From positions 65,656 through 129,655 of the forward strand of contig CAZAMC010000002.1 of assembly GCA_964486505.1 (NCBI GenBank): a stretch of DNA of 64,000 nt. The letters are read 5' to 3'. Numbering within the stretch: position 1 is the stretch's first letter; every line of letters starts with the position of its first letter. Below the pieces are notes generated by a model that saw only the letters and a program-made list of their open reading frames with translations, made no database searches and was not told where the DNA came from. The translations under genes and the position numbers were made by a program. Shown here piece by piece: positions 14,531 through 54,529 of this stretch. This DNA comes from an uncultured Gammaproteobacteria bacterium. GTDB taxonomy: Bacteria > Patescibacteriota > Patescibacteriia > PEXW01.

Positions 14531-14544
14531 AGAAGCCCGACCTG

Positions 14545-14575
14545 CGCAACGAGCTGGCGGAGAGGGAGAGATTCA
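14545..14575. repeat. direct repeat copy 1: duplicate of tRNA-Ser 3' terminal 19 nt plus 8 nt of 3' flank
   Basis: aacgagctggcggagagggagagattc identical to 14724-14750. Confidence 0.85.
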
Positions 14576-14720
14576 CCCCCATAGGTCATGGAGGCATGTT
14601 CCTGGTTGGGGTCCCCACAACTGTGGCGCGCAGCGCAGTGAGCACGCAGTTGTGGGGCAAAGCGAGGCTTCGCACAGAGGGCGGAGCTTTTCGCGGTCAC
14701 GCGAAAACGGAGCTCGACGG

Positions 14721-14751
14721 GCGAAACGAGCTGGCGGAGAGGGAGAGATTC
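14721..14751. repeat. direct repeat copy 2 (overlaps genuine 3' end of tRNA-Ser)
   Basis: 27/27 nt identity with 14548-14574. Confidence 0.85.
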
Positions 14752-14819
14752 GAACTCTCGATACCTTTCGGTATACTCGCTTTCCAAGCGAGCGCACTAG
14801 GCCACTATGCGACCTCTCC
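14732..14819 (-). tRNA. tRNA-Ser (anticodon GGA), class II with long variable arm, encoded CCA
   Basis: GGAGAGG acceptor, D-arm AGTGGCCTAGT, anticodon loop TTGGAAA, variable stem-loop TACCGAAAGGTA, T-loop TTCGAAT, CCTCTCC-G-CCA. Confidence 0.9.
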
Positions 14820-14827
14820 GTGAATAA

Positions 14828-15085
14828 TTATCGCTTCTTTATCGTGCCATCTAGTAAGGCACGAAATTGCACTCCACCTTTGTACTTTTTTACTCTTTGC
14901 TCCATTCCGTGTGCCTCACTTCTGGTCTGGTATTGTTCCATAAATACAACCTTCCAGGGCATTCCGATCTTCGTCGAGCGTACAGCGCCACGATTATGTT
15001 GAGCCAACCGGCTGGCTACATCCTCGGTGTGACCAATATAATACCGACCGTTTCGAATACTCTGCAAAATATACACCGTAAACAT
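14828..15085 (-). CDS. GIY-YIG nuclease family protein (YhbQ/UPF0213-like, 85 aa); track ORF extends to 15130 but Met at 15085 gives canonical N-terminus MFTVYILQS
   Basis: VYILQSIRNGRYYIGHTEDVASRLAQHNRG = GIY-(x10)-YIG motif with R and QH residues. Confidence 0.8.
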   Translation of the reverse strand: MFTVYILQSIRNGRYYIGHTEDVASRLAQHNRGAVRSTKIGMPWKVVFMEQYQTRSEAHGMEQRVKKYKGGVQFRALLDGTIKKR

Positions 15086-15129
15086 AGTTGAGCTTTCTGC
15101 CGCGGAGCGGCATCCCGCTCCGCGGGACA

Positions 15130-15218
15130 AGCGAGCGCACTAGGCCACCCACCGCGATACGGGGCCCCGCTTCGCGGGATATGCTTGCCCCGCCGAATGG
15201 CGGGGCGACCTCTCCACG
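15130..15218 (-). pseudogene. tRNA-Ser 5'-half fragment (nt 1-11 and D-arm through anticodon-stem 5' strand) interrupted by a 55-nt GC-hairpin insertion
   Basis: GGAGAGGTCGC ... GTGGCCTAGTGCGCTCGCTTG identical to the intact gene at 14785-14819; no 3' half present. Confidence 0.55.
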
Positions 15219-32687: not shown

Positions 32688-32716
32688 TTGACGCCGAAAA
32701 GGGGAGGGTTTACTAT
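32688..32716 (+). promoter_or_regulatory. sigma70-type promoter of nrtR / NAD operon (TTGACG-N17-TACTAT) followed by TGTAATACA palindrome
   Basis: -35 32688-32693, -10 32711-32716; 9-bp palindrome at 32721-32729 could be an operator. Confidence 0.55.
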
Positions 32717-32740
32717 GTGTTTGTAATACACTAAGTACCT

Positions 32741-33412
32741 ATGCCGAAGGCCAAGAAGTACCAATTCGCCGTTATTGCCTCGGACGTGGTCATTCTCACG
32801 GTCCGCGATGGCGCCTTGCAGGTGCTGTGCATTCAAATGCAGAAAGCGCCTTTTACCGGCAAGTGGGCCGTACCCGGGGGGTTGGTGCGCCCGAATGAAT
32901 CCGTTGATCACGGGGCGCATCGTCTCCTTGCCGAAAAGGCGGGCCTCCACGACGTGTACCTGGAGCAGCTCTACACGTTTGGCAAAGTGAACCGGGATCC
33001 GTTTGGCCGTGTGGTCTCGGTGGCCTACTTTGCCTTGGTCCCCAGCGACCATTTGCAGCTGCGAACAACCAAAGAGTACGCAGGGGTTCGGTGGTTCCCG
33101 GTTCGCAAACTGCCAGCTATGGCGTACGACCACGCGGAAATCGTGCAAACCGCCGTCCAGCGTTTGCAAGCCAAGCTTGGGTACACGAACATCGTCTTTA
33201 GCCTCTTGCCGAAGGCCTTCACCCTTTCTGAACTGCAGCACGTGTACGAAATTATCATCGGCAAGAGCTTTGATAAGCGGAATTTCCGCAAGAAAGTGCT
33301 GGGGCTGAAGCTGGTCCGGCCCACCGGCCAGAAGCGGGTAGGGGAGGCAAACCGGCCAGCGCACCTCTTCTCGTTCGTGCACCACGCCATTGCGCGCGTG
33401 GATATCCTGTAA
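32741..33412 (+). CDS. nrtR: NrtR-family transcriptional regulator of NAD metabolism (degenerate Nudix domain + C-terminal wHTH)
   Basis: N-terminal Nudix fold with degenerate box GGLVRPNESVDHGAHRLLAEKAGL; C-terminal FTLSELQHVYEIIIGKSFDKRNFRKKVLGL characteristic of NrtR DNA-binding domain. Confidence 0.75.
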   Translation: MPKAKKYQFAVIASDVVILTVRDGALQVLCIQMQKAPFTGKWAVPGGLVRPNESVDHGAHRLLAEKAGLHDVYLEQLYTFGKVNRDPFGRVVSVAYFALVPSDHLQLRTTKEYAGVRWFPVRKLPAMAYDHAEIVQTAVQRLQAKLGYTNIVFSLLPKAFTLSELQHVYEIIIGKSFDKRNFRKKVLGLKLVRPTGQKRVGEANRPAHLFSFVHHAIARVDIL

Positions 33413-33683
33413 ATTTTTTTCCTCGACAGTTAGTGTATGAATAACAATATCATTGTCACTTGTACACGAACTCCGCATAGCCTTGACAAAACAGCGGTTT
33501 CTTGCCAAGGTATCCGGTCTTTCCAACTTCCCAACATGTCCCAAAGCCTAGGGAATTGCTTACCCCTGGGGAGCGCCGTGGCGTTCTCCGCGGGTAGCCC
33601 GTTGCCAGGGCTGCGAGTCCTTTGACAACTCGCAATCAGAGAAGTTTGAGAACATACACGATACTTTGAGAAAGGACAGAAGC

Positions 33684-34514
33684 ATGATTCCTTTTGAGAT
33701 TGCAGCTGGTACTGTTGCCGGGCGAGACCACCGTCTTGCCGGGCGCAACAACCAGGATGGGTACGCGGTTGTTCCTCGGCCCCTCGTCCTCGCTGCCTTT
33801 GCTTGCGATGGTTGCGGAAGTAGTCCGCAGAGTGAAGTTGGCGCGCGCCTTGGCGCTCGACTCCTTGCTGAATGCCTCGGTAAGAGTCTGGAGAGCGTGG
33901 GCCCGGGCGTGGTTTTCGACCATGCCCTCCTCAGCCGGCACTGCGAACGAGCGCGGCAAGATCTCCTTGCTCACCTCCGCGTGTTTGGCCGAACTCTGGG
34001 CGGCAACTTCACCAGCGTCGTGGCCGAGTACTTCCTCTTCACGGCAATTGGCGTTGTGGTGACGCCGTCTTCGGCAGCGATTGTGGCTGCCGGTGATGGG
34101 CTCTACGCCATCAATGGCAGTGTGGCCCAACTCGGTCCGTACGAGAACAACGCCCCGCCCTACCTTGGGTACGGCTTGCTGGATGCGGACCAAACCGACA
34201 CGCCCACACCAACGCTCAACGTCGAAATGGTGATGCCGTCGGTCGATGTGCAATCCTTGCTCATCGGCACGGATGGTGCGCTCGACTTTTGGGCGAAGGC
34301 AAACCGGCTTGTGCCTGGCACGGACCAGCCGCTCGGGCCCCTGAGCCAGTTCTGGGAACGTTCGGAGTTCTTCCGAAATGCAGACACGCTCCGGCGCCGC
34401 TTGACGGTTGCGAGTAATGACGTGACGCACATGCAGGACGGGGAAATCGAAAGAATTCCTGGTCTGCTGCACGACGACACGACGCTCATCGTCCTCCGGC
34501 GAAAGGAGGCCTAG
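33684..34514 (+). CDS. PP2C-family Ser/Thr protein phosphatase (track ORF starts at TTG 33666; Met 33684 has AAAGGA RBS)
   Basis: motifs NQDGY, ACDGCGS, GTDGAL, HDDTTLIVL. Confidence 0.8.
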   Translation: MIPFEIAAGTVAGRDHRLAGRNNQDGYAVVPRPLVLAAFACDGCGSSPQSEVGARLGARLLAECLGKSLESVGPGVVFDHALLSRHCERARQDLLAHLRVFGRTLGGNFTSVVAEYFLFTAIGVVVTPSSAAIVAAGDGLYAINGSVAQLGPYENNAPPYLGYGLLDADQTDTPTPTLNVEMVMPSVDVQSLLIGTDGALDFWAKANRLVPGTDQPLGPLSQFWERSEFFRNADTLRRRLTVASNDVTHMQDGEIERIPGLLHDDTTLIVLRRKEA

Positions 34515-36386
34515 GTGTACATCTACATGCAAGGGCGGCGATACAACCTCAACCCCGCTGATGCTATTGGCAAAGGCGGTGAAGCGGACATCTTCCTGGT
34601 CCAAGACCTGGCGGTGAAGATCTTCAAGCCGCCGAACCACCCCGACTTCGTGGGCTTCAGTGCTGAGCAGCAGGCCGCGCAGTTTCGTTTAGACGAACAC
34701 CAGCGTAAGTTGCCGGATTTTCCTCACGGCCTGCCGAGCCGAGTCATTAGCCCGCAGGAACTCGTGCGGGATCAGGCCGGTCAGCGGATTCTCGGCTACG
34801 CCATGCAATTCCTGCCTGGCGCGGAGGTGCTGTACCGTTTTACCGACAAGCGCTACCGCGAGCAGCGCGTTCCTACGCCGCACGTCGTGCAGACCTTCTT
34901 AGATCTGCACAGCACGGTGGCAGGGTTGCACGCTCGCCAGGTGGTCATTGGGGACTTCAACGACTTGAACGTCCTCGTGTACCCGGACAAACCTGAAGCG
35001 TACTTGATTGATGCCGATAGCATGCAGTTCGGACCGTACCAGTGCCGGCTCTTTACGGCGCGGTTCGTGGACCCATTGCGGTGCGATGCGCACCACCTTA
35101 TCCTGGCCCACCCGCACGTACCGGAATCGGATTGGTACGCCTTCAACGTCATGCTCATGCAGTGTTTACTTTTCGTGGGGCCGTACGGTGGCGTGTACAT
35201 GCCCAAAGGCAATGCACCGCGTATTCCCCACGACTCCCGTCCGCTGAAGCGGATAACGGTTTTCAATCCGGACGTGATTTACCCCAAGCCCGCTGTGCCC
35301 TACAGCGTGCTCCCCGACGATCTGCTGCAGCACTTCCACCTGGTATTCGAACGCGATCAACGTGGGACATTCCCGCGGCCGCTCCTCGAACGCCTACGCT
35401 GGACAACGTGCAGCGGATGCGGCAAAGAGCATGCTCGGGCAACGTGTCCCTTCTGCCAGCACGCTGCGCCCGCAGCGATCCAGCAGGTGGTGACTATGCG
35501 CGGCACGGTGAAAGCCACGCGCGTATTTCGCACGAGCGGACGCATCCTCGCTGCTGCCTACCAAGACCAGCGGTTGCGCACGCTGTGCTACGAACGCGAT
35601 GCCTACGTCCGCGAAGCAGATCGGGTGATTGCCCGTGAACCGTACCGTCCCGACCAGCGCATTCGCCTTATGGGCGATACCACGCTCATCGGACGGGGGA
35701 GTGACGTCACGGTCTATAGCCTGAGTCAGCCACCGCGAAGCTTGAGCGTTGATACCTACCGGCACCTGCCGATGTTCGATGCCAATGCAACGCAGAAAGT
35801 CTGGGTATCGGGCGGGCAGCTCCAGCGCGACGGGAAATTCGGCGACGAATTCCCCGAAACCCTGGGCAACGTACTCCAGCGACAGACCCTACTCTGGCTG
35901 GGCCCAAGCTTCGGCTTCGGGTTCTACCGAGCGGGCGACCTGGCCGTGAGTTTCGTCTTCGATGCACAACGGCAAGGACTCAACGACAGTGTGAATGTTC
36001 CGTTGCACGGCCAGCTGGTAGATGCGACTTGCGTCTTCAGCAAAGACCGGTGCTGGTTCCTCACCGTCTCGCAGGAGCACTCGCGCATCGTGCATCGTTG
36101 CACAGTGATTCGGCCCGACGGGACCGTGGACGCGACGCTCGAAGCAGCGCCCACCGATGTGCCGTGGCTCGCTAACATTCGTGGCAAGGCCGCGGTCGGT
36201 TCGTACCTCTTCGCCGCGACTGATGCGGGGCTGGTACGTGTGGAGGCACAGCAGGGGGTCATCACGCAGACGCGTGACTTCCCCGATACAGAGCCATTCG
36301 TGGATGCAGGCAGCCGACTTGTGGTTGGCGGCGACGGCATTTACGTGATTGAGAAACAAGAGATTACGCGCTTGGAGCTCACCTGA
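34515..36386 (+). CDS. atypical protein-kinase-like (RIO/Bud32/Kdo-kinase-like) Ser/Thr kinase fused to zinc ribbon and C-terminal beta-rich domain
   Basis: IGKGGEADIFLV...VKIFK, IGDFNDLNVLV, YLIDADS; CSGCGKEH...CPFCQH; GTG start overlaps PP2C stop (AGGAGG RBS). Confidence 0.7.
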   Translation: MYIYMQGRRYNLNPADAIGKGGEADIFLVQDLAVKIFKPPNHPDFVGFSAEQQAAQFRLDEHQRKLPDFPHGLPSRVISPQELVRDQAGQRILGYAMQFLPGAEVLYRFTDKRYREQRVPTPHVVQTFLDLHSTVAGLHARQVVIGDFNDLNVLVYPDKPEAYLIDADSMQFGPYQCRLFTARFVDPLRCDAHHLILAHPHVPESDWYAFNVMLMQCLLFVGPYGGVYMPKGNAPRIPHDSRPLKRITVFNPDVIYPKPAVPYSVLPDDLLQHFHLVFERDQRGTFPRPLLERLRWTTCSGCGKEHARATCPFCQHAAPAAIQQVVTMRGTVKATRVFRTSGRILAAAYQDQRLRTLCYERDAYVREADRVIAREPYRPDQRIRLMGDTTLIGRGSDVTVYSLSQPPRSLSVDTYRHLPMFDANATQKVWVSGGQLQRDGKFGDEFPETLGNVLQRQTLLWLGPSFGFGFYRAGDLAVSFVFDAQRQGLNDSVNVPLHGQLVDATCVFSKDRCWFLTVSQEHSRIVHRCTVIRPDGTVDATLEAAPTDVPWLANIRGKAAVGSYLFAATDAGLVRVEAQQGVITQTRDFPDTEPFVDAGSRLVVGGDGIYVIEKQEITRLELT

Positions 36387-36431
36387 GCACCAGGCACGCG
36401 AGAACACAACAGAAGAACGAGGAGGTTCACC

Positions 36432-38168
36432 ATGCTCGCAACCTACACGGCAGCGCTGCACCGCGGTGCCAAAGTGTCGGTCACCGGTTTATGCGGCAGG
36501 ATTATTCGCGGGAAGAAGCCCGAAGATTTTCTGACGCTCACCGATGATCCCGACCGGAAACTCGTCCTGCTCATGGGGCCGGATGGGTTGGAGAAGCTAC
36601 TCGGCAAGAGTGGCTACCAGATGCTGGTGGAAATCGGCTACGAGACGGGCTACATTGCCCGTAAGGTCGCCGAAGGAAACCAGTTCAAGCTCATCGTTTT
36701 TCCCGAAGGTGGGCCGGCTAAGCTGGCGACCTGGGAGAACGTCATCGACGTCGTCAGCGACGTCTACCCGAACATTGCCGCTAAGCTCAACCGTTCCCGG
36801 GACAGCTTGGCCAAAGTGCCGTTCGACGAAATCGAAAGGTTGGCTCGCTTCGACTTTTCCGTTGTGGACAAAGCTGGTCCTGCTGACCCGCGGTACATGA
36901 CGGAAGAGCGGTTCCGCCAGAGCGCTGGAACGCTCGTCGACGCCCGGGCCTTCCTGTACTTCACGGTTCACCTGCGCGAGCTGTATCGCGGTGATGGGTA
37001 CACCTACACCGCCGACGGCCGCCGGGGGCTGATGGAGTACATCGTGCCCAACGTGCCCATTGCGGACTTGGGCTCGCACGAAATCATTGACCTCACCATA
37101 ACGCTGCCTTCCGCGCAGCCCAACACAAGGAGTGGTAATTTGAAAACGTATCCTATCCCGGCGCACTACGACCCCAACGCGGTCGACCAGGTGCGCAAAG
37201 TGCCGTACGAGGCAATCGCCACGGCGGCGGGAACGTACGCCCAGCAGCACGGCATCAAAGCCGCTGTCACGGACAAGTTTCGTCTGGCCCTGATGGCGAT
37301 TGACGTTCAGAATACGTTCGTCATCCCGGGTTACGAACTCGTCGTCGGCGGAGCGGTGGAGGACACGCAGCGGACCTGCGCGTTCATCTACCGTAACCTC
37401 GGCTACATTACCGAGATCGATCCGACCATGGACACCCACCGGATGTTCCAGATCTTCCACGCCGCTTTCTGGGTGGATGGCAATGGGCAGCACCCGGCGC
37501 CGTTCACCAGCATCAAGCTGACGGACGTGGAGAACGGGACCTGGAAGCCGAACCCGGCTATGGCGGCCTACCTGACCAGCGGCAGCTACCCGACGCTGCT
37601 GGAACACTGCTTGCACTACTGCAAGAAGTTGGCCGAACGCGGTCGGTACGAGCTGAGCATTTGGCCGTACCACGCCATGCTCGGGGGCATCGACCACGCC
37701 CTGGTGCCGGCGTTCCACGAAGCGTGCATCTTCCACGCTGCCGCGCGGCAGATGCAGACCGGCCTGGAGATCAAGGGTGGTAGCCCCTACACGGAGAACT
37801 ACTCCATCTTCGGTCCGGAAGTGCTCAACACGAAGGGGGGCAAGCCTCTCCCGCTGGTGCAGCGCAATGTGGCGTTCCTCGAGCGCCTCATGAACTGCGA
37901 TGCGGTGGTCATCGCCGGCCAGGCGAAGAGCCACTGCGTGGCTTGGACGATCGACGACTTGCTCGTCGATATCAGCGCGAAGGACCCGAGCCTCGCCAAG
38001 AAGGTCTACCTCCTGGAGGACTGCACCTCGCCGGTGATTATCCCCGGGGTGGTGGACTACACGCCCATGGCCAACGCCGCTTTCCAGCGCTTCCAGGATG
38101 CGGGTATGCACGTGGTTCGTTCCACCGATCCGATCTGGACGTGGCCGGGCCTGCAGGACAAGTTCTAG
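36432..38168 (+). CDS. pncA: two-domain protein: unknown N-terminal domain (~280 aa) + nicotinamidase/isochorismatase-family cysteine hydrolase (PncA-like) with large insertion
   Basis: C-terminal half: LMAIDVQNTFV, DTHRMFQIFH metal site, catalytic-Cys context AGQAKSHCVAWTIDDL; GAGGAGG RBS. Confidence 0.65.
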   Translation: MLATYTAALHRGAKVSVTGLCGRIIRGKKPEDFLTLTDDPDRKLVLLMGPDGLEKLLGKSGYQMLVEIGYETGYIARKVAEGNQFKLIVFPEGGPAKLATWENVIDVVSDVYPNIAAKLNRSRDSLAKVPFDEIERLARFDFSVVDKAGPADPRYMTEERFRQSAGTLVDARAFLYFTVHLRELYRGDGYTYTADGRRGLMEYIVPNVPIADLGSHEIIDLTITLPSAQPNTRSGNLKTYPIPAHYDPNAVDQVRKVPYEAIATAAGTYAQQHGIKAAVTDKFRLALMAIDVQNTFVIPGYELVVGGAVEDTQRTCAFIYRNLGYITEIDPTMDTHRMFQIFHAAFWVDGNGQHPAPFTSIKLTDVENGTWKPNPAMAAYLTSGSYPTLLEHCLHYCKKLAERGRYELSIWPYHAMLGGIDHALVPAFHEACIFHAAARQMQTGLEIKGGSPYTENYSIFGPEVLNTKGGKPLPLVQRNVAFLERLMNCDAVVIAGQAKSHCVAWTIDDLLVDISAKDPSLAKKVYLLEDCTSPVIIPGVVDYTPMANAAFQRFQDAGMHVVRSTDPIWTWPGLQDKF

Positions 38169-38258
38169 GAACATCCTGCGCGACGTGTTCTCCTCCGGTG
38201 GCTGGCACACGGTCAGTCGCCGGAGGGAACCAAATCTGAATTCGAGGAGAATACCAAC

Positions 38259-39047
38259 ATGTCAAAAAGTGTAAACCAGCTCTTGGACACAGCGGTGGAT
38301 CAGGGCAACCTTTCCCGCGTTTCCTCGCAGCTCTTAACCGCTGGGGACATTGGCCGGCAGATCCAGCAGGGCATGGGCTTGCCCATCGACGCTGTGGATT
38401 CGCCGGAAGTCATTGTCCTGCAGCAGCTCATTGACGATTCTGGTAGCATCCGGTTCGTCTCTGGGAATACCGAAGCGGTGCGCGATGGCAGCAACGGTGC
38501 CATTGAAGCCATGCGCAAGACCAAACAGGCGCAAGCCGGGAGTATCCTGGCAGCGCTCCGCTTCCTCAACCGCGGCGTGCTCTACGATATCCGCCCGATC
38601 GCGAATGCGGAGTTGCTGGTAACCAGCAATTACAATCCCGATGGCATCACGCCGCTCTATGACCAGACAATGGTCCTCTGCGGCACCGCAATCGCCAAGA
38701 CGCAGGAGTATCAGAATTCGGGTATTGCCGTCCGGACGATCAACCTGATCGTCACCGACGGGCACGACCAGGGTTCGTTCCACTCCATTCGGGATTGCGC
38801 CAACGTGGTGGGCGACTTGCTCAAATCCGAAATGCACATCCTGGCGGCCATCGGCATCACCGACGGCAGCACGGACTTCCAGGCGATTTTCCGGCAGATG
38901 GGCATCCCCGATCAGTGGATCCTGACGCCGAAGAATACGCCTTCGGAAATCCGCAAAGCGTTCCTGCTCGCTTCGCAGTCGGCCGTGCGCGCCAGCCAGA
39001 ACGCGGCGTCCTTCAGCCAGGTGGCAATGGGCGGCTTCACCAAGTAA
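38259..39047 (+). CDS. von Willebrand factor A (vWA) domain protein with intact MIDAS
   Basis: VIVLQQLIDDSGSI (DxSxS), conserved T and D (LIVTDGHD). Confidence 0.7.
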   Translation: MSKSVNQLLDTAVDQGNLSRVSSQLLTAGDIGRQIQQGMGLPIDAVDSPEVIVLQQLIDDSGSIRFVSGNTEAVRDGSNGAIEAMRKTKQAQAGSILAALRFLNRGVLYDIRPIANAELLVTSNYNPDGITPLYDQTMVLCGTAIAKTQEYQNSGIAVRTINLIVTDGHDQGSFHSIRDCANVVGDLLKSEMHILAAIGITDGSTDFQAIFRQMGIPDQWILTPKNTPSEIRKAFLLASQSAVRASQNAASFSQVAMGGFTK

Positions 39048-39241
39048 GCAGCTCTTTCGTCTCAATGATCTTTTACGCGGAGAGGAGTGCCCTGCACTCC
39101 TCTCCCAAACTTCTCTGATTGCGAGTGTCAGCAAAGCCGTGGAACGCCCCAACGTTCTGCAGCTTTGGCCACAACATACGTTGTGGCCATGCAACCCAAG
39201 AAAAAAAGTGAACGTTGAATAGAAGAAAGTGAGGAATACCA

Positions 39242-40624
39242 ATGCCTCGTGTCGCAATTTTCGGCCTTAGCGGTAATCCAAGCGGGTTACACCACCGCCG
39301 TGTTGTCTTGCGCCTGGCCCAAGCGTTTGACCAGGTAATCGTGGTTCCGTGCGGTCCTCGGCCAGACAAGCTGACGACCAATGACATCGCGCCAATCAAC
39401 CGGGCGGTGATGGCGGACCAGACTTTCGGCGATATTCCCAATGTCACCGTTGATCTGGACGATCTGGAACACGATCTCTTCACCCGGACGGTAGCGCTCC
39501 TGGAACGGTATGCGCACCGGGGTGAGTGCTGGCTGGCCATTGGCGGTGACCTGATAGTGGGCGGGAAGAACGGCCAATCCGTTATCCAGCGTGAATGGGA
39601 GCGTGGCCAGGAAATCTGGCAGGCGAAGATCGTGGTCATCCCGCGGGAAGGTACGCCGTTTGATACGGCAGACTTGCCGCCCAACGCGGATGTCCTGGCG
39701 CCTGTGGATGGTGGCTCGAGCACGGAGATTCGGGAACGGATCTTCACGCACCAGCCGTTCGCTGACCTCGTCATGCCCGCAGTGGCTTCGTACATCGAAC
39801 GCTACGGTTTGTACCGGGGGATGCAGCCAAACCTGTTAGCTCCCGGCACAACCATCGAGTTGCCACGAATCATCTGTGTTGCTGATCCGGAGAATGCTCT
39901 CGCCAGCGCAATTGCCCAGCGCTTTGCGGCAATGCACGTGCAGAGCTTGCCCAATTGCATTGTGGCTATTGGTGGCGACGGGTTCATGCTCCAGGTTATC
40001 CGCGAACACTGGCGGAAGCGCCTGCCCATCCTGGGTATCAACGCTGGACACCGGGGCTTCCTCCTCAATGAGTGGAACGCCGACTGGCACACCCGGACGT
40101 TCTTCCAGAACCTCACCATCCTGCAGTCACCGTTGCTGTATGTGACCGCAACGAAGCTGGATGGGACGACGGTGACGCAGCTGGCGTTCAATGATGCGTG
40201 GCTACGGTCGGCGAACGGCGGCCAGGCAGCGTGGCTGGAGGTCATGGTCGACGGTCAGACGCGACTCCCGAAACTCGTTGCTGACGGTGCGCTCATTGCA
40301 ACGGCTGGTGGTTCTACTGGGTATGCCCGTGCCCTTGGTGTGAAGCCCATGCCGGTCGGCACCGAACAGCTCATCTTGGCTGGCATGAACGTTTTCGAAC
40401 CGTTTGGCTGGGGGCCGGTGCACCTTGGTCTCCGCCAGAGCATCCAGCTCCGCGTGCTGGATACGGTGAAGCGCGGAGTCGAAGCGTTCGTCGATGGCTT
40501 TAGCCTTGGCCCCGTGACGTCGCTCAACGTCCGCGTGAGCCGAATTGCCTCGGTCGAGCTCGCCTTCTGCCCGAGCAATGACCCACAGCAGAAAATCTTA
40601 GCCCTTCAGTTCCCTGTACATTGA
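39242..40624 (+). CDS. nadM-nadK: bifunctional nicotinate/nicotinamide-mononucleotide adenylyltransferase - NAD kinase fusion
   Basis: N-term IFGLSGNPSGLHH (nucleotidyltransferase (H/T)xGH), C-term GGDGF, NAGHRGFL, DGALIATAGGSTGYARALG NAD-kinase motifs. Confidence 0.8.
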   Translation: MPRVAIFGLSGNPSGLHHRRVVLRLAQAFDQVIVVPCGPRPDKLTTNDIAPINRAVMADQTFGDIPNVTVDLDDLEHDLFTRTVALLERYAHRGECWLAIGGDLIVGGKNGQSVIQREWERGQEIWQAKIVVIPREGTPFDTADLPPNADVLAPVDGGSSTEIRERIFTHQPFADLVMPAVASYIERYGLYRGMQPNLLAPGTTIELPRIICVADPENALASAIAQRFAAMHVQSLPNCIVAIGGDGFMLQVIREHWRKRLPILGINAGHRGFLLNEWNADWHTRTFFQNLTILQSPLLYVTATKLDGTTVTQLAFNDAWLRSANGGQAAWLEVMVDGQTRLPKLVADGALIATAGGSTGYARALGVKPMPVGTEQLILAGMNVFEPFGWGPVHLGLRQSIQLRVLDTVKRGVEAFVDGFSLGPVTSLNVRVSRIASVELAFCPSNDPQQKILALQFPVH

Positions 40625-40798
40625 TTCCCTCCGTGGTGTGGAGCGTACGGCTTACCCCGGCGCTCCACCCCCAATTTTCTTCCAGAGCCTTGTTCCGAAA
40701 CCTTTCGGCGCAGTGCTCTCACCCGAAAAAACTTTTCGAGTGATGCTCATTAACAACCTGCAAGCAACAGAAATTTATAGAATAAACAGGAGATGTAT

Positions 40799-41359
40799 AT
40801 GGAACAGCAAGGCACCCCGAGAGTGGTGAAGAAGAATTTCGTCCTCCGCACCATTCAATCGCGAGGTCATGCGTGGCAGTACTTAGAAACGTCCGATTCC
40901 GCGAATGTCCTCATCTACATTACAGACAAGGACCAGGTGCTCCTGGTTCGCCAGCAGCGTGACGCCATGGTGCGAAACGATAACCCGGAAGGCTGGATTA
41001 CCGAGAGCGTCGCCGGCCGATTTGACCGGGAAGAAACTGTGCGCCAGCTCCTCGCCCGTGAAGCGAGCGAAGAGGTTGGGGGCACTATTCATCCCGACGC
41101 GATCGTGCTCCTGAACAACGGCGCTCCGCTCGCTCTTTCTGCCGGTTGCCTGGTGGAACGGGCGTGGCTTGGCTTCGTGGAGGTTACCAGCGACCAGCTG
41201 GAGAAAACTGATCGCCAGTATGGCTTGGCCGCAGAGGGTGAGCGCATCACGCGCATCTTCCTGCCGGCCCGTGAAGTGGAGAGCTACGTGTGCGAGGACG
41301 TGCGTGTCTTCGCGCTCCTCCAGTGGTTCCTCCGTATGAAAGTTGATGATCGCAGATAG
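40799..41359 (+). CDS. NUDIX hydrolase (ADP-ribose pyrophosphatase-like)
   Basis: Nudix box ...ESVAGRFDREETVRQLLAREASEEVG; start moved to Met with ACAGGAG RBS. Confidence 0.65.
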   Translation: MEQQGTPRVVKKNFVLRTIQSRGHAWQYLETSDSANVLIYITDKDQVLLVRQQRDAMVRNDNPEGWITESVAGRFDREETVRQLLAREASEEVGGTIHPDAIVLLNNGAPLALSAGCLVERAWLGFVEVTSDQLEKTDRQYGLAAEGERITRIFLPAREVESYVCEDVRVFALLQWFLRMKVDDRR

Positions 41360-41372
41360 AAAGGAGGAAGCC

Positions 41373-42635
41373 ATGAGCTTCCGCAATACCAGGCGTGGTA
41401 TAGGAGAGGCGATTATCCAATCGCTCCTCGATGTGGACTTTTACAAGTTCACAATGGGGAATTTCATATACCAGTTTTACCGAGATGTGATCGTCACATT
41501 CGGGATGAAGAATCGGACAGCCTCCATCCGACTCGCAGACGTTATCGATGTGCAGGAGCTGCGGGCTGAGCTAGATCACGTTATGACGCTTCGTTTCACG
41601 CCGAGTGAGATCTACTACTTGCGCGGCATGGACGTGTACGGGAAGAACATGTTCTCCGAAGAGTACTTGAACTTCCTGAAGAGCCTTCAGTTGCCGCCCT
41701 ATGAGCTCCACGTCGTTGACGGGCAGTTCGACCTTCGCTTCACTGGACCGTGGGCCGCGGTTTCCCTCTGGGAGACCATTGCCTTAGGGATTGTGAATGA
41801 GCTCTACTACCGCGCGCTCCTCCGCGACAAGAGTCGCTTCCAGCGCCAGGCTATCTACGCAGATGGTATCCGTCGCCTGCACGACAAGATTGTGGAGCTG
41901 AAGAAGCGCCCGCGCATCAACTTCATCGAGTTTGGGACGCGGCGACGCTTCGGCCGGGTGTGGCAGAGCGACATCACGCGCGCGCTCGCCGAAGAGCTAC
42001 CAGCTACGCAGTTCCGCGGGACGTCGAACACCTTCCTAGCATTCAAGTACGGCTTCACCCCTATGGGTACAAGCGCACACGAACTGCAAATGGTGGTTGG
42101 CGCTCTAGCGAACTCCGATGCCGAGCTCCTCGCTTCGACAGAGGTCGTGCTCGACCAGTGGTTCGATCTGTACGGACCTGGACTCTCCATCGCGCTGCCC
42201 GACACATTCGGCTCGGAATTCTTCTTCAAGGTTTTTGGAGAGGAACGGGCTCGCAAGTGGAAGGGGACGCGAGAAGATTCGGCTGACCCGTTGCTCGCTG
42301 GCATAGAGCGGATCAAGTTCTACCGTAGCTTCGGCATTGACCCGAAGACGAAGCTATGGCTACCCAGCGACGGTCTCGATCTTGGGAAAATCATCAAGAT
42401 CGACGAACGGTACGGCGACCAGCTGATCGTTTCGTACGGCTGGGGCACAACGTTGACAAATGACCTGGGTCTCCCGACCCTGTCACTCGTCATCAAGGCC
42501 ACTGCCGCAAACGGTCGAGGTACGGTGAAGCTCTCGGACAACCTTGCCAAAGCCATGGGTCCGGCTGACGAAGTCCAGCGGTATAAACGGGTCTTCGGCT
42601 ATACCGAGATTCGTGATGAAGAGTGCAAAGTGTGA
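41373..42635 (+). CDS. pncB: nicotinate phosphoribosyltransferase
   Basis: SLLDVDFYKFTMGNF (LLDTDxYKxTM family motif), overlaps NUDIX stop; AAAGGAGGA RBS. Confidence 0.85.
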   Translation: MSFRNTRRGIGEAIIQSLLDVDFYKFTMGNFIYQFYRDVIVTFGMKNRTASIRLADVIDVQELRAELDHVMTLRFTPSEIYYLRGMDVYGKNMFSEEYLNFLKSLQLPPYELHVVDGQFDLRFTGPWAAVSLWETIALGIVNELYYRALLRDKSRFQRQAIYADGIRRLHDKIVELKKRPRINFIEFGTRRRFGRVWQSDITRALAEELPATQFRGTSNTFLAFKYGFTPMGTSAHELQMVVGALANSDAELLASTEVVLDQWFDLYGPGLSIALPDTFGSEFFFKVFGEERARKWKGTREDSADPLLAGIERIKFYRSFGIDPKTKLWLPSDGLDLGKIIKIDERYGDQLIVSYGWGTTLTNDLGLPTLSLVIKATAANGRGTVKLSDNLAKAMGPADEVQRYKRVFGYTEIRDEECKV

Positions 42636-42675
42636 AAATGCTTGCAGGAACAATCGGTGGGAGGCAGCAATGCTT

Positions 42676-42745
42676 CCCACCCTTTCCCTCGAGTGTCCCA
42701 CAGTGGTGGGGGATTGGAGGGAAAGCACAAACAACAACGTTCACT
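42676..42745 (+). promoter_or_regulatory. conserved structured leader RNA copy A (riboswitch-like) upstream of GNAT gene
   Basis: P1 CTTTCCCTC/GAGGGAAAG enclosing CCCAC-AGTG-GTGGG hairpin; 45/47 nt identical to 43355-43405; P1 5' strand is anti-SD-like. Confidence 0.45.
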
Positions 42746-42758
42746 GAAAGGAGCTAGC

Positions 42759-43322
42759 ATGGACTACCGTTCAATGCTCGCCAATCCAAGAATTCGTTTG
42801 GTCCCCGCCCAAGTTGCGGATGCCGAACGTATCGTCACTGCCTTACAGCCTGCAGCAACGCAAAACCTTTCGTTCTTCGCGCACAATGATCTCACACTAG
42901 ATCGCCAGCGGAGGTACATCGAGCGTATGCGCCGTGACGAGCACTATCTGTGGGTTGTGGAGCGGACCAGCGACGGCGCCATCATTGGTACTGCCGGCCT
43001 GCACGAGATTGACCGTAACAACCACAATGCTCGTCTGGGCGTGCTCATCTTTCGCCAGGAAGATCGCGGTCAGGGGTATGGCACAGAGGCCATCCTCCAG
43101 GTACTCCAGAAAGCTTTTAGCGGGTTCGCCTTGCATAAGGTGTACCTCAAAGTCTTCACGGATAACATTCGGTCCACAAGCCACTACATGCAACTTGGTT
43201 TTACCACCATGGAAGGAATTTTCCGCCAGGAGTACTGGCTTAACGGTGGGTACAAAGACATGTTCCGTCTAGCCATGTTCCGCGATGACTGGACGGAGCG
43301 GTACTGGTACCACCCGAAGTAA
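42759..43322 (+). CDS. GNAT family N-acetyltransferase
   Basis: acetyl-CoA fold motifs RQEDRGQGYGTEA; AAAGGAG RBS at Met 42759 (track ORF 42642 start lies in leader RNA). Confidence 0.75.
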   Translation: MDYRSMLANPRIRLVPAQVADAERIVTALQPAATQNLSFFAHNDLTLDRQRRYIERMRRDEHYLWVVERTSDGAIIGTAGLHEIDRNNHNARLGVLIFRQEDRGQGYGTEAILQVLQKAFSGFALHKVYLKVFTDNIRSTSHYMQLGFTTMEGIFRQEYWLNGGYKDMFRLAMFRDDWTERYWYHPK

Positions 43323-43354
43323 TTTCTGTGGTTGGCGATGGATTTTTCCTTCGC

Positions 43355-43425
43355 CAACCCTTTCCCTCGAGTGCCCCACAGTGGTGGGGGATTGGAGGGA
43401 AAGTATGGAAGACAACGTTCATTAC
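43355..43425 (+). promoter_or_regulatory. conserved structured leader RNA copy B upstream of deoxyribosyltransferase-like gene
   Basis: same P1 and inner hairpin; single T->C change converts G-U to G-C pair in inner stem. Confidence 0.45.
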
Positions 43426-43450
43426 ATGCATCTACAAGAGGAGGTTCCGC

Positions 43451-44200
43451 ATGCAACTCGTGTATTGGCTTGAGCCATACCCCACGGTATGCACAATGTC
43501 TATGTTCCTGGCTGGCCCTACTGCTCGGCAAGGCGAAATTCCTTCCTGGCGAAAAGAGGCGGTGCGGCTGTTGGCTGAAGCGAATTGGGATGGAGCTGTG
43601 TTCATTCCTGAGCCGCGTCCCGGCACGCCCTGGCCGACGAAGCCCCAGCACGACATCATCGTCGACTGGGAAATCACCGGCTTGAACCGCGCCGACTGCA
43701 ACCTGTTCTGGGTGCCGCGGAGTGAAGATACGCTGCCTGGATTCACGACGAATATCGAATGGGGCGACTTCTTCAAGTCTGGGCGCGCAGTGCTCGGTTG
43801 CCCATCCACGGCCGTCCGCATGAACTACATGAAGTATCGCGGCTCGCAGTTCCATGTCCCGTTCGCGGATTCGCTTGAGGGGACCATCGCACATGCGATT
43901 GCCCTCATCGGTGCTGGCGGTACGCGGACTGAAGGTGAGTGCTGCATCCCTGCGCTTATCTGGACGCACCATGCATTCCAGGAGTGGTACCGTTCCGCAC
44001 ACGCCGCGGGCAACTGCATCCTCAACGCCACAGTGCTGTGGGTGAATCGCAAAGGCGGCGACTTCGCCATCGCCATAACCTTGCTGCGGCAAGAACCGGC
44101 ACCTGCGGAAAACGTCCTTCTCACGGGGGGCAGCTACGGCTACCAGATGCGTCGGTACCGCCTGGGTAGCACGGCCCGTCCTGAAGTTGAACTTTGGTAG
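43451..44200 (+). CDS. nucleoside 2-deoxyribosyltransferase-fold protein (possible nucleoside/nucleotide N-glycosidase)
   Basis: N-terminal MSMFLAGPT...IPSWR resembles NDT/DNPH1-type FLAGP motif; AGAGGAGG RBS. Confidence 0.5.
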   Translation: MQLVYWLEPYPTVCTMSMFLAGPTARQGEIPSWRKEAVRLLAEANWDGAVFIPEPRPGTPWPTKPQHDIIVDWEITGLNRADCNLFWVPRSEDTLPGFTTNIEWGDFFKSGRAVLGCPSTAVRMNYMKYRGSQFHVPFADSLEGTIAHAIALIGAGGTRTEGECCIPALIWTHHAFQEWYRSAHAAGNCILNATVLWVNRKGGDFAIAITLLRQEPAPAENVLLTGGSYGYQMRRYRLGSTARPEVELW

Positions 44201-44322
44201 TGCAGGTGGTGGAAGCGATACAAAGCTTCTACCACCCTTTATCCGAGTTGCTACACCTTTTGGCAATTCAGGTAAAAGCAAATATTCATTGACAATTACA
44301 TACATCAGAAAGGAGGCGCACC

Positions 44323-46326
44323 ATGCGCTTCGAACAGGATTTTCCAGATATCCGACGTCATGGTTTTGCCCGCGTGGCAGCGGTGGTTCCCGAGGTTAGT
44401 CTCACGCATCCCATGCAAAATGCGAAGAATCACCTGACGTACCTTGAGGATGCATACAACCAAGGGGCAATGTACGCTGTGTGCCCTGAGTTGGGCCTGA
44501 CCGGCTACAGCAGCGGCGATCTGTTTTTCTCCGAGACCCTGACGGACGCGGTGCTGGATGCTCTGGACTGGCTCGTCCAGAAAACCGATGGTTGGGATAT
44601 GCTCATCTCCGTGGGCGTGCCGCTGGTGGTTGACGCGCAGCTCTACAATTGCGCCGTCACGTTCTGTAATGGGGAAATTCTTGGAGTGACGCCGAAGGCC
44701 TACCCACCGGAGTACCGAGAGTTTTACGAAGCGCGGCACTTTGCCCGCGCTAGTAACGCTCGTAGCACGACCATCGCTCTCCTCAACCAGAGCGACGTGC
44801 CTTTTGGTACGGACATCATTATCCGTTCGCGAACCAACCCGAACTTCGCCGTCTTCACCGAGATTTGCGAAGACCTGTGGGTGCCCATCCCGCCGAGCAC
44901 GCACGCCGCGCTCGCGGGCGCCACCATCCTCGGCAACCTCTCCGCTTCTAATATCACTATTGGGAAAGGGGAGTATCGTCGGCAGCTGGTGCTGGATTCG
45001 TCTGGCCGCAACCTGGCCGTGCAGATCTACTGCGCGGCAGGATTTGGTGAGTCCACCGCCGACCTCGCCTGGGATGGGGAAGCCCTCATTGCCCAAGGCG
45101 GAAAGCTCCTGGCGACGAATACGCGTTTCGCTCTCCACGGTTCTTGCATTGTGACCGACGTGGACCTCCATGCGCTCATGCACGATCGGCGGCAGAGTTC
45201 CTTCCGGCAGAATGCGTCGGACGATGGGAAGCCATTCCGCATCGTCTACTGTGATGCTGACTTAGGCGCCGGTGCCGATAATGCATTGCTGGAATTCCGC
45301 TACCCCCTGGAGCAGCACCCGTTTGTGCCTGAAGATCCGGGAACGCGTGATGAGCGCTGCCAGGAAACGTTCAACATCCAGACGTCGGCCCTGGCCATGC
45401 GTATCTCGTCGCTGCCGCCCAACTACCGGAAACTAGTCCTCGGACTCTCCGGGGGCCAGGATTCCACGCACGCGTTGCTCGTGGCGGTCTACACAATGGA
45501 CCTCCTCAAGCTGCCGCGGACCAATGTGATTGCCGTTACTATGCCTGGTTTCGGCACCACCCCACGGACCAAGGGGAATGCCCAGGCACTCGCCGAAGCT
45601 CTCGGCGTGACCTTCAAGGACATCTCCATTGTGCCTCTGGCTACTGCACTTCTGGAAAGCGTTGGGCACGACCTGACTGACCACAATGTAACCTACGAGA
45701 ACAGCCAAGCCTGGTCACGGAAGATGGTTGAGCTTGCCCTCGCTGGCAAGCTCGGCGCCATCGACCAGGGTACGGGCGACCTCTCGGAGCTCGCGCTCGG
45801 CTGGTGCACGATGTTCGGTGACCACGCCTCGCACTACAACCCAAACGCGGGCGTGCCGAAGACGCTTATCAGCCACCTCATTCGGTGGTCTGCAGAATAC
45901 GTTTTCGCGGAGGAAGCAGAAGTGAAGAAAGTCCTGCTGGACATACTGGATACACCCATATCCCCCGAGCTGCAGCCAGCCGGTGCTGACGGGCAGATTG
46001 TCCAGAAGACGGAGTCAATCGTCGGTCCGTATGCGCTCCACGACTTCTTCCTGTTCTACTTCGTTCGCCACGGGCGCTCGCCCTTCACTATTGCCCGGCT
46101 TGCGGCGCAGGCCTTCGACGGGCAGTACACGCTGGTCGAGATCAAGAAGTGGCTGAAGGTGTTCATCCAGAAGTTCTTCGGGAACCAGTTCAAACGGAAC
46201 TGTGTGCCGGATGGACCGAAGGTGGGGCTCACCTCACTCTCGCCGCGCGGGGACTGGCGCATGCCACCTGAGGCCGACGCCGGTCCGTGGCTGGCGGAGC
46301 TCGACGAAGTTCCTGATCGTTTGTGA
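44323..46326 (+). CDS. nadE: glutamine-dependent NAD+ synthetase (N-terminal CN-hydrolase + C-terminal NAD synthase)
   Basis: nitrilase-fold N-domain with ...CEDLW catalytic Cys, C-domain P-loop LSGGQDSTHALLVAV; AAAGGAGG RBS. Confidence 0.9.
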   Translation: MRFEQDFPDIRRHGFARVAAVVPEVSLTHPMQNAKNHLTYLEDAYNQGAMYAVCPELGLTGYSSGDLFFSETLTDAVLDALDWLVQKTDGWDMLISVGVPLVVDAQLYNCAVTFCNGEILGVTPKAYPPEYREFYEARHFARASNARSTTIALLNQSDVPFGTDIIIRSRTNPNFAVFTEICEDLWVPIPPSTHAALAGATILGNLSASNITIGKGEYRRQLVLDSSGRNLAVQIYCAAGFGESTADLAWDGEALIAQGGKLLATNTRFALHGSCIVTDVDLHALMHDRRQSSFRQNASDDGKPFRIVYCDADLGAGADNALLEFRYPLEQHPFVPEDPGTRDERCQETFNIQTSALAMRISSLPPNYRKLVLGLSGGQDSTHALLVAVYTMDLLKLPRTNVIAVTMPGFGTTPRTKGNAQALAEALGVTFKDISIVPLATALLESVGHDLTDHNVTYENSQAWSRKMVELALAGKLGAIDQGTGDLSELALGWCTMFGDHASHYNPNAGVPKTLISHLIRWSAEYVFAEEAEVKKVLLDILDTPISPELQPAGADGQIVQKTESIVGPYALHDFFLFYFVRHGRSPFTIARLAAQAFDGQYTLVEIKKWLKVFIQKFFGNQFKRNCVPDGPKVGLTSLSPRGDWRMPPEADAGPWLAELDEVPDRL

Positions 46327-46343
46327 GTTCGCTCATTCATAGA

Positions 46344-46373
46344 AACCCCGATGCACTCGCGTCGGGGTTTTCT
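46344..46373 (+). terminator. rho-independent terminator ending the NAD operon
   Basis: aaccccga-N10-tcggggtt then TTTTCTCTT. Confidence 0.8.
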
Positions 46374-53476: not shown

Positions 53477-54529
53477 GTGGCTATGCAAACTTGGCGAACC
53501 CTTGGCGTTATCAGCGCTAGCTGCGTCCTCGCAGTGGCTCTTACGGCGTGTGGGAAGCCGCCCGCCAATACCAACGTGGTAGACGAGAACGCGAATGCCA
53601 ATGAGAACGTGAATGCGGAAGTCCCCGATGTGAACGCGAATGCCAATGAGAACGTGAATGCAGATGCCAACGCGAATGGGAACACGAACGGGTCGGTGGA
53701 CGCGAACGTCAATGGCAGCCAAGACTTAGATGACGACGGGCTCACGAACGATCAGGAGCGGCTGTACAAGACCGATCCTCTGAACGCCGATACCGACGCC
53801 GACGGGTACAAGGACGGGGTGGAAGTAGCAACTGGGTATGATCCCACCAAGCTGCCCGAGGAAGACCCAAAGGTCATAAGCCAGTTGAAGCCGGTGAATA
53901 CCCCCGGTTTGCCAGCACCGCCAGTACGGGCCACGGCGCTCAAGGCAGCGCAGAGTTTTCCATTTCGAGCCACGAAGACCGATGGGCAGGTGACCATTCG
54001 CCTCGACTCGAAGGTTGCAATGTCCATTGTGAATTTCGCCCTCGACTTTGCGGGCGGCGTAGATAACCGAGGACCCGCACTGAACCTGGATAACCGCTAC
54101 GCGCTGCTTGGCGGGACCTTTGATAAAGGCAAAGTCTGGGCCGCAGGCCGCGACTTCGTAAAAGGGCCGCACTACATGTCCACGAGCAACACCGTTGGGA
54201 CCCTCACGCTCTTCCCGGCACCGACCCCGCCCTTCTCTATTGATGGTCGCGGTGAAGGCGGGATTGAAGATGCAGCGGCGGTATCCATGAATACGTTTGT
54301 GGCGGATTTCCCGAAGAGCGGCACCTACAAGTTTGAATTCGGGGTCGCCCGAGGCAAGGCCAAGATTGCCATAGAGAATACCAACCTGGTGTTCAAGGAT
54401 AAGGTGTACGCTGAAGTGGAGAGCATTAAACCCGTTACGGTCACGGCTGACGTTGCCGAAGGTTTACACACCATTACCATTCAGGGGCAAGAATTCCCGT
54501 CCTGGTCCCTCCGCGTTTCTAAAATGTAG
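53477..54529 (+). CDS. lipoprotein with N/A-rich low-complexity linker and TSP3-like Ca-binding motifs
   Basis: lipobox LTAC; NANANENVNAEVPDVNANANENVNADANANGNTNG; DDDGLTNDQERLYKTDPLNADTDADGYKDGVE. Confidence 0.65.
   Translation: MAMQTWRTLGVISASCVLAVALTACGKPPANTNVVDENANANENVNAEVPDVNANANENVNADANANGNTNGSVDANVNGSQDLDDDGLTNDQERLYKTDPLNADTDADGYKDGVEVATGYDPTKLPEEDPKVISQLKPVNTPGLPAPPVRATALKAAQSFPFRATKTDGQVTIRLDSKVAMSIVNFALDFAGGVDNRGPALNLDNRYALLGGTFDKGKVWAAGRDFVKGPHYMSTSNTVGTLTLFPAPTPPFSIDGRGEGGIEDAAAVSMNTFVADFPKSGTYKFEFGVARGKAKIAIENTNLVFKDKVYAEVESIKPVTVTADVAEGLHTITIQGQEFPSWSLRVSKM
53587..53661 (+). repeat. tandem 30-nt direct repeat (period 45 nt) inside lipoprotein gene
   Basis: gaacgcgaatgccaatgagaacgtgaatgc at 53587-53616 and 53632-53661. 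Confidence 0.85.

Follow-up and report, generated by a model that had tools for sequence, protein, structure and literature searches.

Three consecutive intergenic spacers of a nicotinamide adenine dinucleotide (NAD)-salvage operon carry a conserved, structured RNA module composed of two abutting hairpins, A and B. The operon lies on a 64-kb stretch of DNA (64,000 nt; contig CAZAMC010000002.1, positions 65,656 to 129,655), hereafter the window, whose host is a bacterium of the Patescibacteria (candidate phyla radiation, CPR). The module is real and conserved, acts on the sense strand as RNA, is inherited in a modular manner and, within the 64-kb window, is confined to the NAD operon: scans with a covariance model and for structure located it only in the three distal spacers. 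It is previously uncatalogued and has no Rfam family. The favored reading, with a probability of about 0.4, is that the long NAD-salvage operon of Patescibacteria is punctuated constitutively by this intercistronic RNA module, which senses no metabolite; the most suitable place for it is among the variants of intercistronic stem-loop punctuation. A previous interpretation based on the letters of the DNA (the sequence-only reading) had proposed a riboswitch sensing NAD, nicotinamide mononucleotide (NMN) or nicotinamide and acting as a translational ON/OFF switch by pairing with the Shine-Dalgarno (SD) sequence, a proposal that the evidence described below does not support.

The sequence-only reading had described two near-identical copies of a leader element, and these were recovered by a repeat search as a direct repeat of 81 nt with 83% identity (42676-42756 and 43354-43434). 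The 45-nt core, CCTTTCCCTCGAGTGYCCCACAGTGGTGGGGGATTGGAGGGAAAG, has exact matches at 42681-42725 and 43359-43403 only, and none of 100 shuffles matched it. The cores of copies 1 and 2 differ by a single T/C substitution that converts a U.G pair into C-G and, as had been noticed, preserves the structure. Hairpin B of both copies is folded by RNAfold into a 9-bp P1 (CUUUCCCUC/GAGGGAAAG), an AGU:AUU helix with G.G mismatches at its flanks, a 6-bp YCCCAC/GUGGGG stem and a tetraloop, with energies of -30.4 and -34.3 kcal/mol (z = -3.7 and -5.6). P1, the inner stem and the tetraloop of the fold first described were reproduced, but the strands that had been taken as an internal loop partly pair. The unit is also larger than first described, since an additional upstream hairpin A of variable sequence is joined to B with a 0-nt linker, and a third, diverged A+B copy (44205-44278) precedes nadE. 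A covariance model comprising hairpin B and its flanks (R1) recognizes exactly three sites on the + strand of the window, with E values of 1e-14 to 1e-16.

Each module thus defined consists of a GC-rich hairpin A located just past a stop codon, the abutting hairpin B, and an A-rich single-stranded spacer with a GUUC-type box and the SD; the 5' arm of hairpin B is the pyrimidine-rich tail of A (C/CUUUYC). The SD sequences, the start codons and the NAD gene content had been read correctly. The box ACAACGTTCA is likewise present after copies 1 and 2, at 9 nt from hairpin B and not at the 10-15 nt previously given. In general form, (R)GUUC(A/U)UU..ACA, it is found 5-15 nt 3' of hairpin B and 20-42 nt 5' of the start codon, and across distant genomes it is more conserved than the hairpins; it may serve as a site for an RNase or a protein, or as a DNA half-site.

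The structural evidence derives from two sets of sequences. In the R1 alignment, which includes 16 close-family copies from five genomes, 82% of the cells are paired and double changes occur in 10 of the 17 pairs, values that were reached by 0 of 500 shuffles. R1 is too sequence-specific for the distant Patescibacteria copies (that of the relative L010 was retrieved at E=2.6), in which the fold is kept and the sequence is unrelated. The second set was curated and contains 23 A+B instances, not fully independent, from at least 10 genomes. All 23 fold as two hairpins, with shuffle z values of -3 to -13.5. The + strand is the more stable one in 16/23 instances (mean 5.1 kcal/mol; Wilcoxon p=0.0026, the instances being not fully independent), and 60 G.U pairs are formed on the + strand vs 29 on the - strand. 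The better folding of the + strand and its roughly twofold content of G.U pairs therefore indicate an RNA made from the sense strand.

The geometry of the module is held within narrow limits in this set. Hairpin A begins 4-25 nt past the stop codon and measures 18-47 nt, and the linker between A and B has 0 nt in 15/23 instances and at most 2 nt in 21/23. Hairpin B spans 36-50 nt (mostly 39-44) and has 13-19 base pairs, 15-19 in all but one instance. Its first 7 nt are 87% pyrimidine and its last 7 nt are 85% purine, an asymmetry of the arms that exceeds what pairing requires.

The relatives used for comparison were found via the Ndt-like protein (matching Nuc_deoxyri_tr2) and the NadD-NadK fusion, and are metagenome-assembled genomes of Patescibacteria, including Parcubacteria, Komeilibacteria and Uhrbacteria. 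At least 10 related genomes have the A+B architecture at the corresponding junctions of their NAD operons, and the sequences are often unrelated. Further copies and covariation in relatives, named by the sequence-only reading as what would tell the element from a simple local duplication, were found. The close relatives L002, L003, L005 and L008 have a near-identical hairpin B at the same types of junction, and the differences between hairpin B of copy 3 and its counterpart in L002 (GAUAAAAG) are compensatory. The AT-rich L006 (NadD-NadK 72% identity) has four A+B units with heavily changed sequence, e.g., CUUAUCUGAGUUACUA...UGGUGAUUCAGAUAAG. Two abutting hairpins of unrelated sequence occur at junctions 3' of NAPRTase in L010, L012, L013, L014, L018 and L019 (42-48% identity). 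As a separate observation, L012 (CAYTUI010000001.1) is labeled "uncultured Gammaproteobacteria" and encodes a Patescibacteria-type NadD-NadK fusion (48% identity) together with A+B modules; this bin may be mislabeled or chimeric.

The order of genes around the module differs between genomes. Representing the A+B element by e, it is NAPRT-e-GNAT-e-Ndt-e-NadE in the window, NAPRT-e-Ndt-e-GNAT-e-NadE in L003 and L005, NAPRT-e-HisPhos-e-Ndt-e-GNAT-e-NadE in L006, NAPRT-e-NadE in L008 and GNAT-(22 nt)-Ndt-e-NadE in L002. L008 (NadD-NadK 90% identity) lacks both GNAT and Ndt and retains a single element, at the NAPRTase-nadE junction; in L002 (Ndt-like protein 83% identity) the 22-nt spacer between GNAT and Ndt is devoid of it. 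Pairwise comparison of these rearranged genomes revealed that sequence running from the stop codon to the end of hairpin A goes with the upstream gene (76-89% identity), sequence from B up to the start codon goes with the downstream gene (79-91% identity), and most w1-type hairpin B copies are 89-100% identical across junctions. The hairpin A of copy 1 also stands 3' of NAPRTase in L003, L005 and L008 (85-89% identity from stop codon to A), and that of copy 2 is related to a hairpin found 3' of GNAT in L003 (76% identity from stop codon to A). Because of these segmental identities, A behaves as a 3'-untranslated region (UTR) element, the spacer with box and SD as a 5'-UTR element, and B as the crossover region; hairpin B is where gene order was reshuffled between genomes. 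Among the close relatives (42636-44322 compared with L002, L003, L005, L006 and L008) the order or presence of GNAT, the Ndt-like gene and HisPhos varies, with break points inside the shared hairpin B. The Ndt-like protein of L003 and L005 carries a fused C-terminal extension (386 aa vs 249 aa). The features of the operon are listed in Table 1.

Table 1. Genes and RNA elements of the NAD-salvage operon, in positions of the window. The gene assignments were confirmed with Pfam; hairpins A of copies 1 and 2 were assigned with RNAfold.
Feature	Coordinates	Strand	Description
NadD-NadK fusion gene	39242..40624		
Nudix gene	40793..41359		
NAPRTase gene	41343..42635		
Hairpin A, copy 1	42656..42681	+	GGUGGGAGGCA-GCAA-UGCUUCCCACC; 20 nt past NAPRTase stop codon
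Hairpin B, copy 1 (element of the sequence-only reading)	42682..42725	+	18 bp; pyrimidine-rich 5' arm CUUUCCCUC, purine-rich 3' arm GAGGGAAAG; R1 69.1 bits, E ~1e-15
GUUC-type box, copy 1	42734..42743	+	ACAACGTTCA; 9 nt 3' of hairpin B
SD and start codon of GNAT gene	42746..42761	+	SD GAAAGGAG; ATG at 42759
GNAT gene	42759..43322		
Hairpin A, copy 2	43330..43359	+	GGUUGGCGA...UCGCCAACC; 7 nt past GNAT stop codon
Hairpin B, copy 2	43360..43403	+	R1 67.3 bits
GUUC-type box, copy 2	43412..43421	+	ACAACGTTCA; 9 nt 3' of hairpin B
SD and start codon of Ndt-like gene	43437..43453	+	SD AGAGGAGG; ATG at 43451
Ndt-like (Nuc_deoxyri_tr2-like) gene	43451..44200		
Hairpin A, copy 3	44205..44236	+	GGUGGUGGAAGC...GCUUCUACCACC; 4 nt past Ndt stop codon; stop-to-A segment 81% identical to that after Ndt in L002
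Hairpin B, copy 3 (diverged)	44237..44278	+	CUUUAUCC GAGUUGCUA...UGGCAAUUC AGGUAAAAG; R1 63.2 bits, E ~4e-14
Box ahead of nadE	44284..44294	+	ATTCATTGACA; conserved in L002 and L005
SD and start codon of nadE	44308..44325	+	SD GAAAGGAGG; ATG at 44323
nadE (glutamine-dependent NAD synthetase)	44323..46326		
Intrinsic terminator, operon end	46341..46372	+	AACCCCGA...UCGGGGUUUUCU; canonical, contrast for hairpin A

According to the punctuation reading, hairpin A would define or protect the 3' end of the upstream segment, acting as an exonuclease block or as a weak (leaky) terminator. Hairpin B would sequester the anti-SD-like pyrimidine tail of A, which is complementary to SDs of the GGAAAGG type, and in this way prevent it from folding onto the next SD; it may also provide a stable 5' structure for the downstream segment and/or a double-strand processing site. 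The A-rich spacer would keep the SD open, and A and B together would set the relative expression of the operon genes. Termination or processing, stabilization and insulation are accordingly roles that we infer for the module. Precedents for such an arrangement include the selective processing and stabilization of RNA (SRPS) by intergenic stem-loops in the cip-cel operon of Clostridium cellulolyticum (PMC4423207), stem-loops that are reported to travel with their gene (bioRxiv 10.1101/2021.06.12.447814) and internal terminators that tune the stoichiometry of ABC transporter operons (PMC9045158). By analogy, punctuation of the NAD operon may follow the logic of the cip-cel SRPS and of the internal terminators. 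As in SRPS, a stable stem-loop stands at the 3' end of a cistron within the operon and is co-inherited with that cistron.

Several observations weigh against this reading. Hairpin A fails a simple criterion for intrinsic terminators (a GC-rich stem followed by at least 5 U in 8 nt), as only 3-5 U were counted by inspection in the 8 nt after its stem, and a terminator scan of the window and L006 called no hairpin A, a result that is compatible with weak or leaky activity. Substrates of RNase III usually offer a largely regular duplex of about two helical turns, ~20 bp at the least, and the 15-19 bp of B reach this commonly cited length at best. Coaxial stacking of B (13-19 bp with 1x1 mismatches) on A (7-19 bp, mostly linker-free) could lengthen the helix. 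The covariation was obtained from a structure-fitted alignment, and partners slid by -1 column score similarly (0.275 vs 0.245). The insulation role of B is a rationalization. A purely structural role leaves the confinement to one operon of the window unexplained, and neither the tightly held length of B nor the role of the GUUC box is explained by punctuation.

A riboswitch in which B or A+B binds NAD+, NMN or nicotinamide and the anti-SD-like 5' arm toggles between the 3' arm of B and the SD is the least probable of the explanations considered. The element does stand in the leaders of NAD genes, its structure is conserved with compensatory changes, the 5' arm of B is able to form 5-6 bp with the SD, and the w1-type copies retain the G.G / AGU:AUU / G.G internal region. 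Yet no match emerged among 4227 Rfam models, including the NAD+ classes, when 42500-43600 was scanned at E<=10 (noise only: microRNA, snaR and internal ribosome entry site models); at gathering thresholds the whole window returned only 3 tRNAs, and eight related loci returned tRNAs only. Strings of the ACANCCCC type, the consensus of NAD+ riboswitches, are not present at the locus, and a search of the literature on riboswitches of Patescibacteria/CPR or on NAD RNA elements yielded nothing relevant. Ordinary pairs take the place of the internal region in copy 3, L006, L010 and L012-L019, tetraloops vary even among near-identical copies (AGUG, GCAG, GCUG, GCAA, GCCG, GAUG), and no conserved unpaired nucleotides were found across relatives: loop, bulge and most stem nucleotides change freely, and diverged copies keep only the CCUU...AAGG base of B and the overall shape. 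The four L006 copies differ extensively, having in common only short flanking strings, and the element is absent ahead of Ndt in L002. With regard to the switch, the duplex between the pyrimidine tract and the SD is worth -5.2 to -7.8 kcal/mol vs -14 to -32 kcal/mol for hairpin B, and blocking the 3' arm of B costs 8-19 kcal/mol and leaves the SD still unpaired in the minimum-energy fold. In the ensemble hairpin B dominates and the SD is largely unpaired (probability of being unpaired 0.55-0.67). The riboswitch is unsupported because it lacks a matching model, conserved unpaired nucleotides and an energetically accessible switch, and because individual junctions can do without the element. An operator or junction at the level of DNA, either an NrtR operator inside the operon or a recombination site or cassette junction with incidental hairpin potential, is hardly more probable. 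It would agree with an nrtR gene just upstream (32741-33412), with the variable gene order and content and its break points in B, and with the occurrence of the CAACGTTCA box also in reversed form (TGAACGTTG at 39209, in another leader of the NAD operon). The sites of NrtR are located at promoters and consist of a 21-bp palindrome around a GT-N7-AC core (PMC2330246); B is unlike them, being an imperfect palindrome of 40-44 nt that varies in sequence and lies within the operon. Better candidate operators (TGT-N7-ACA) exist in the nrtR promoter region (32713-32734 and 33432-33475) and none in the A+B units, the strand asymmetry in G.U pairs and energy favors RNA, and homologous recombination at repeats would by itself give the rearrangements with no dedicated function required.

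The possibility that the module is only a series of leaky intrinsic terminators, A with its C/U tail attenuating between genes and B having no function of its own, is improbable, although slightly less so than the DNA-level element. A U/C-rich tract directly follows the GC-rich stem with no linker in nearly all instances, and internal terminators have precedent (PMC9045158). Against it, the tails are poor in U and were not called by the scans mentioned above, and A-type hairpins at 38191-38227 and 39068-39094 in the same operon have no U tail at all. B itself appears to be selected, because distant genomes conserve its structure and length and show compensatory changes in it. More serious, though still unlikely, is the recognition of the constant-length B and the A-B junction by a trans-acting factor (an RNA-binding regulator or a dedicated double-strand RNase) coupling cistron processing, attenuation or translation to NAD status. 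The confinement of the module to the NAD operon of the window argues for it, as do features maintained across distant genomes, namely a B length of mostly 39-44 nt, the absence of a linker, and a CCUU...AAGG base whose arms are asymmetric in pyrimidines and purines. By inspection, a YRAGY:RUUY segment with G.U recurs in the close family and L006, and the same operon carries conserved uncharacterized genes coding for proteins of 623, 578 and 262 aa. The G.U segment is lost in L010, L012 and L019, distant instances share no invariant nucleotides outside the base of B, and no RNA-binding domain was found in the uncharacterized operon proteins by Pfam, NCBIfam and PDB sequence searches. This model is kept alive because operon specificity, constant B length and the GUUC box are otherwise unexplained. 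A combined version, somewhat less likely than the trans-acting factor taken by itself, would make the A-B module an operon-specific regulatory and recombination junction, in which a factor acting on B would tie the cistrons to NAD status and the near-identical B copies would serve as cassette junctions for adding, dropping or reordering NAD-salvage genes.

Other candidates were examined and rejected. The ends of B (CUUUYYY / RRRAAAG) have no core sites of integron attC, which are R''(RYYYAAC)/R'(GTTRRRY) at the ends of an imperfect palindrome. Matches to internal sigma70 promoters in the spacers were as numerous as in shuffles, and the sole 10/12 match (L006 8979-9008, with the -10 overlapping the box) is not repeated in other copies. 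An ATG after copy 2 opens a short open reading frame, and no such leader peptide is encoded in copy 1 or in relatives. A pseudoknot between the loop of B and the box (AGUG/CACU) fits copy 1, with no covariation in L003 by inspection, and a long-range helix around A+B in copy 1 (GGAAC...GUUC) has no equivalent in copies 2 and 3.

The proximal spacers of the NAD operon also begin with an A-type hairpin and then have a different continuation. A "type II" leader precedes nadD-nadK (39048-39241) and was also detected in L003 (6273-6466), L008 (1716-1904) and L006 (4271-4443 and 5338-5508), with no Rfam match. It has an A-type hairpin followed by a pyrimidine tract, and RNAalifold predicts pairing between this tract and a purine tract close to the SD, AAUAGAAGAAAGUGAGG, which the window and one AT-rich L006 copy have in identical form. 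This pairing encloses two inner hairpins, one of them with the sequence-conserved GGCCACAAC-N4-5-GUUGYGGCC, and compensatory changes were observed in 9 of the 36 predicted pairs. As modeled, the type II leader is more riboswitch-like than the A+B element and could represent a new riboswitch class; according to the prediction, the pyrimidine tail that it has in common with the A+B element forms pairs with the SD region, and these surround a three-stem core. The leader of the Nudix gene (40625-40792; also L003 7850-8029, L006 6892-7063 and L008 3288-3457) combines an A-type hairpin with a conserved pair of others, CCGAAA..UUUCGG and CACCCGAA..UUCGAGUG, after which comes GCUCAUUAACAAC, and is conserved between GC-rich and AT-rich relatives.

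The window is cellular, encoding GroEL, PPDK, DnaG and SufB; an exact-pattern scan of viral contigs for the core gave 0 matches, and blastn of the locus against phage records gave no match. The other long co-directional spacers of the window have ordinary U-tailed terminators or no comparable structure. The scanner for two adjacent hairpins gave too many matches in GC-rich coding sequence and was usable once limited to intergenic regions. The genes located 5' of the NAD genes (33666-39047) code for a PP2C phosphatase and the proteins of 623, 578 and 262 aa, the latter three having no solid family match; the 623-aa protein shows weak similarity to the kinase-like region of lanthionine synthetases. 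Synteny of these genes with the NAD genes is seen across Patescibacteria (L003, L006, L010, L011 and L013). The genes for the 578-aa and 262-aa proteins are separated by a very stable hairpin (38191-38227; ~-33 kcal/mol) that has no U tail and is conserved in L008 (858-894). The regulator at 32741-33412 belongs to the NrtR family (Nudix plus NrtR winged helix), and inverted repeats of the TGT-N7-ACA type beside promoter-like TTGAC boxes are candidate NrtR operators. Elsewhere in the window, fragments of a tRNA (14735-14819, - strand) are repeated nearby (14482-15150), including an exact 21-nt copy (15128-15148) and a 46-nt copy with 87% identity (14529-14574), a pattern that resembles an att-site duplication by an integrated element. 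In-frame tandem repeat arrays are found at 12737-12910 and 53582-53736; one codes for a collagen-like Gly-X-Y sequence (units of 9 or 36 nt) and the other has an 18-nt unit (GA/AAYGNGAAYG...).

Patescibacteria have tiny genomes and usually short spacers. Their NAD-salvage operon keeps structured spacers of 110-190 nt at nearly every junction, in genomes that range from 55% GC to AT-rich, and this persistence points to an unexplored post-transcriptional control of a pathway on which episymbionts depend. The locus also shows clearly, in a natural setting, how parts of the 3'-UTR and the 5'-UTR travel with their genes, the shared hairpin being the crossover point. In addition, it calls for caution: where a leader hairpin recurs within an operon for a vitamin or cofactor, it should not be taken as a riboswitch unless the conservation of unpaired nucleotides has been checked.

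Compared with known systems, the module shares with the NAD+ riboswitches of class I (nadA motif) and class II (pnuC motif) the condition of a cis-acting structured RNA placed before NAD metabolism genes with an SD-proximal pyrimidine strand; unlike them, it has no covariance-model match and no pocket nucleotides conserved across homologues, and it is intercistronic, repeated at every distal junction and dispensable at some junctions. In phage T7, RNase III signals stand between the early cistrons, and cleavage leaves a protective 3' hairpin. Those signals are, like B, irregular hairpins with internal mismatches repeated between consecutive cistrons, but B is shorter (15-19 bp), a separate hairpin A lies upstream, and cleavage of B is putative. 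The promoter early stem-loop (PeSL) cassettes of T4-type phages and the repetitive extragenic palindromes and bacterial interspersed mosaic elements (REP/BIME) are also repeated intergenic stem-loop units at break points of gene shuffling; in contrast to them, the module has no evident promoter, is not found outside the operon in the window and is syntenic rather than dispersed. The stem-loops of SRPS are closer, being intergenic in a long operon, located at cistron 3' ends, co-inherited with the gene and more conserved in structure than in sequence. The module differs from them in the host phylum (Patescibacteria) and the operon, and in having a pair of hairpins that abut, of which the second is constant in length and asymmetric between strands at its base. 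Leaky internal terminators (PMC9045158) likewise place a GC-rich hairpin and, directly after it, a U/C-rich tract between two genes of the same operon, whereas in the module the U tract is weak (3-5 of 8) and is always paired into a second conserved hairpin.

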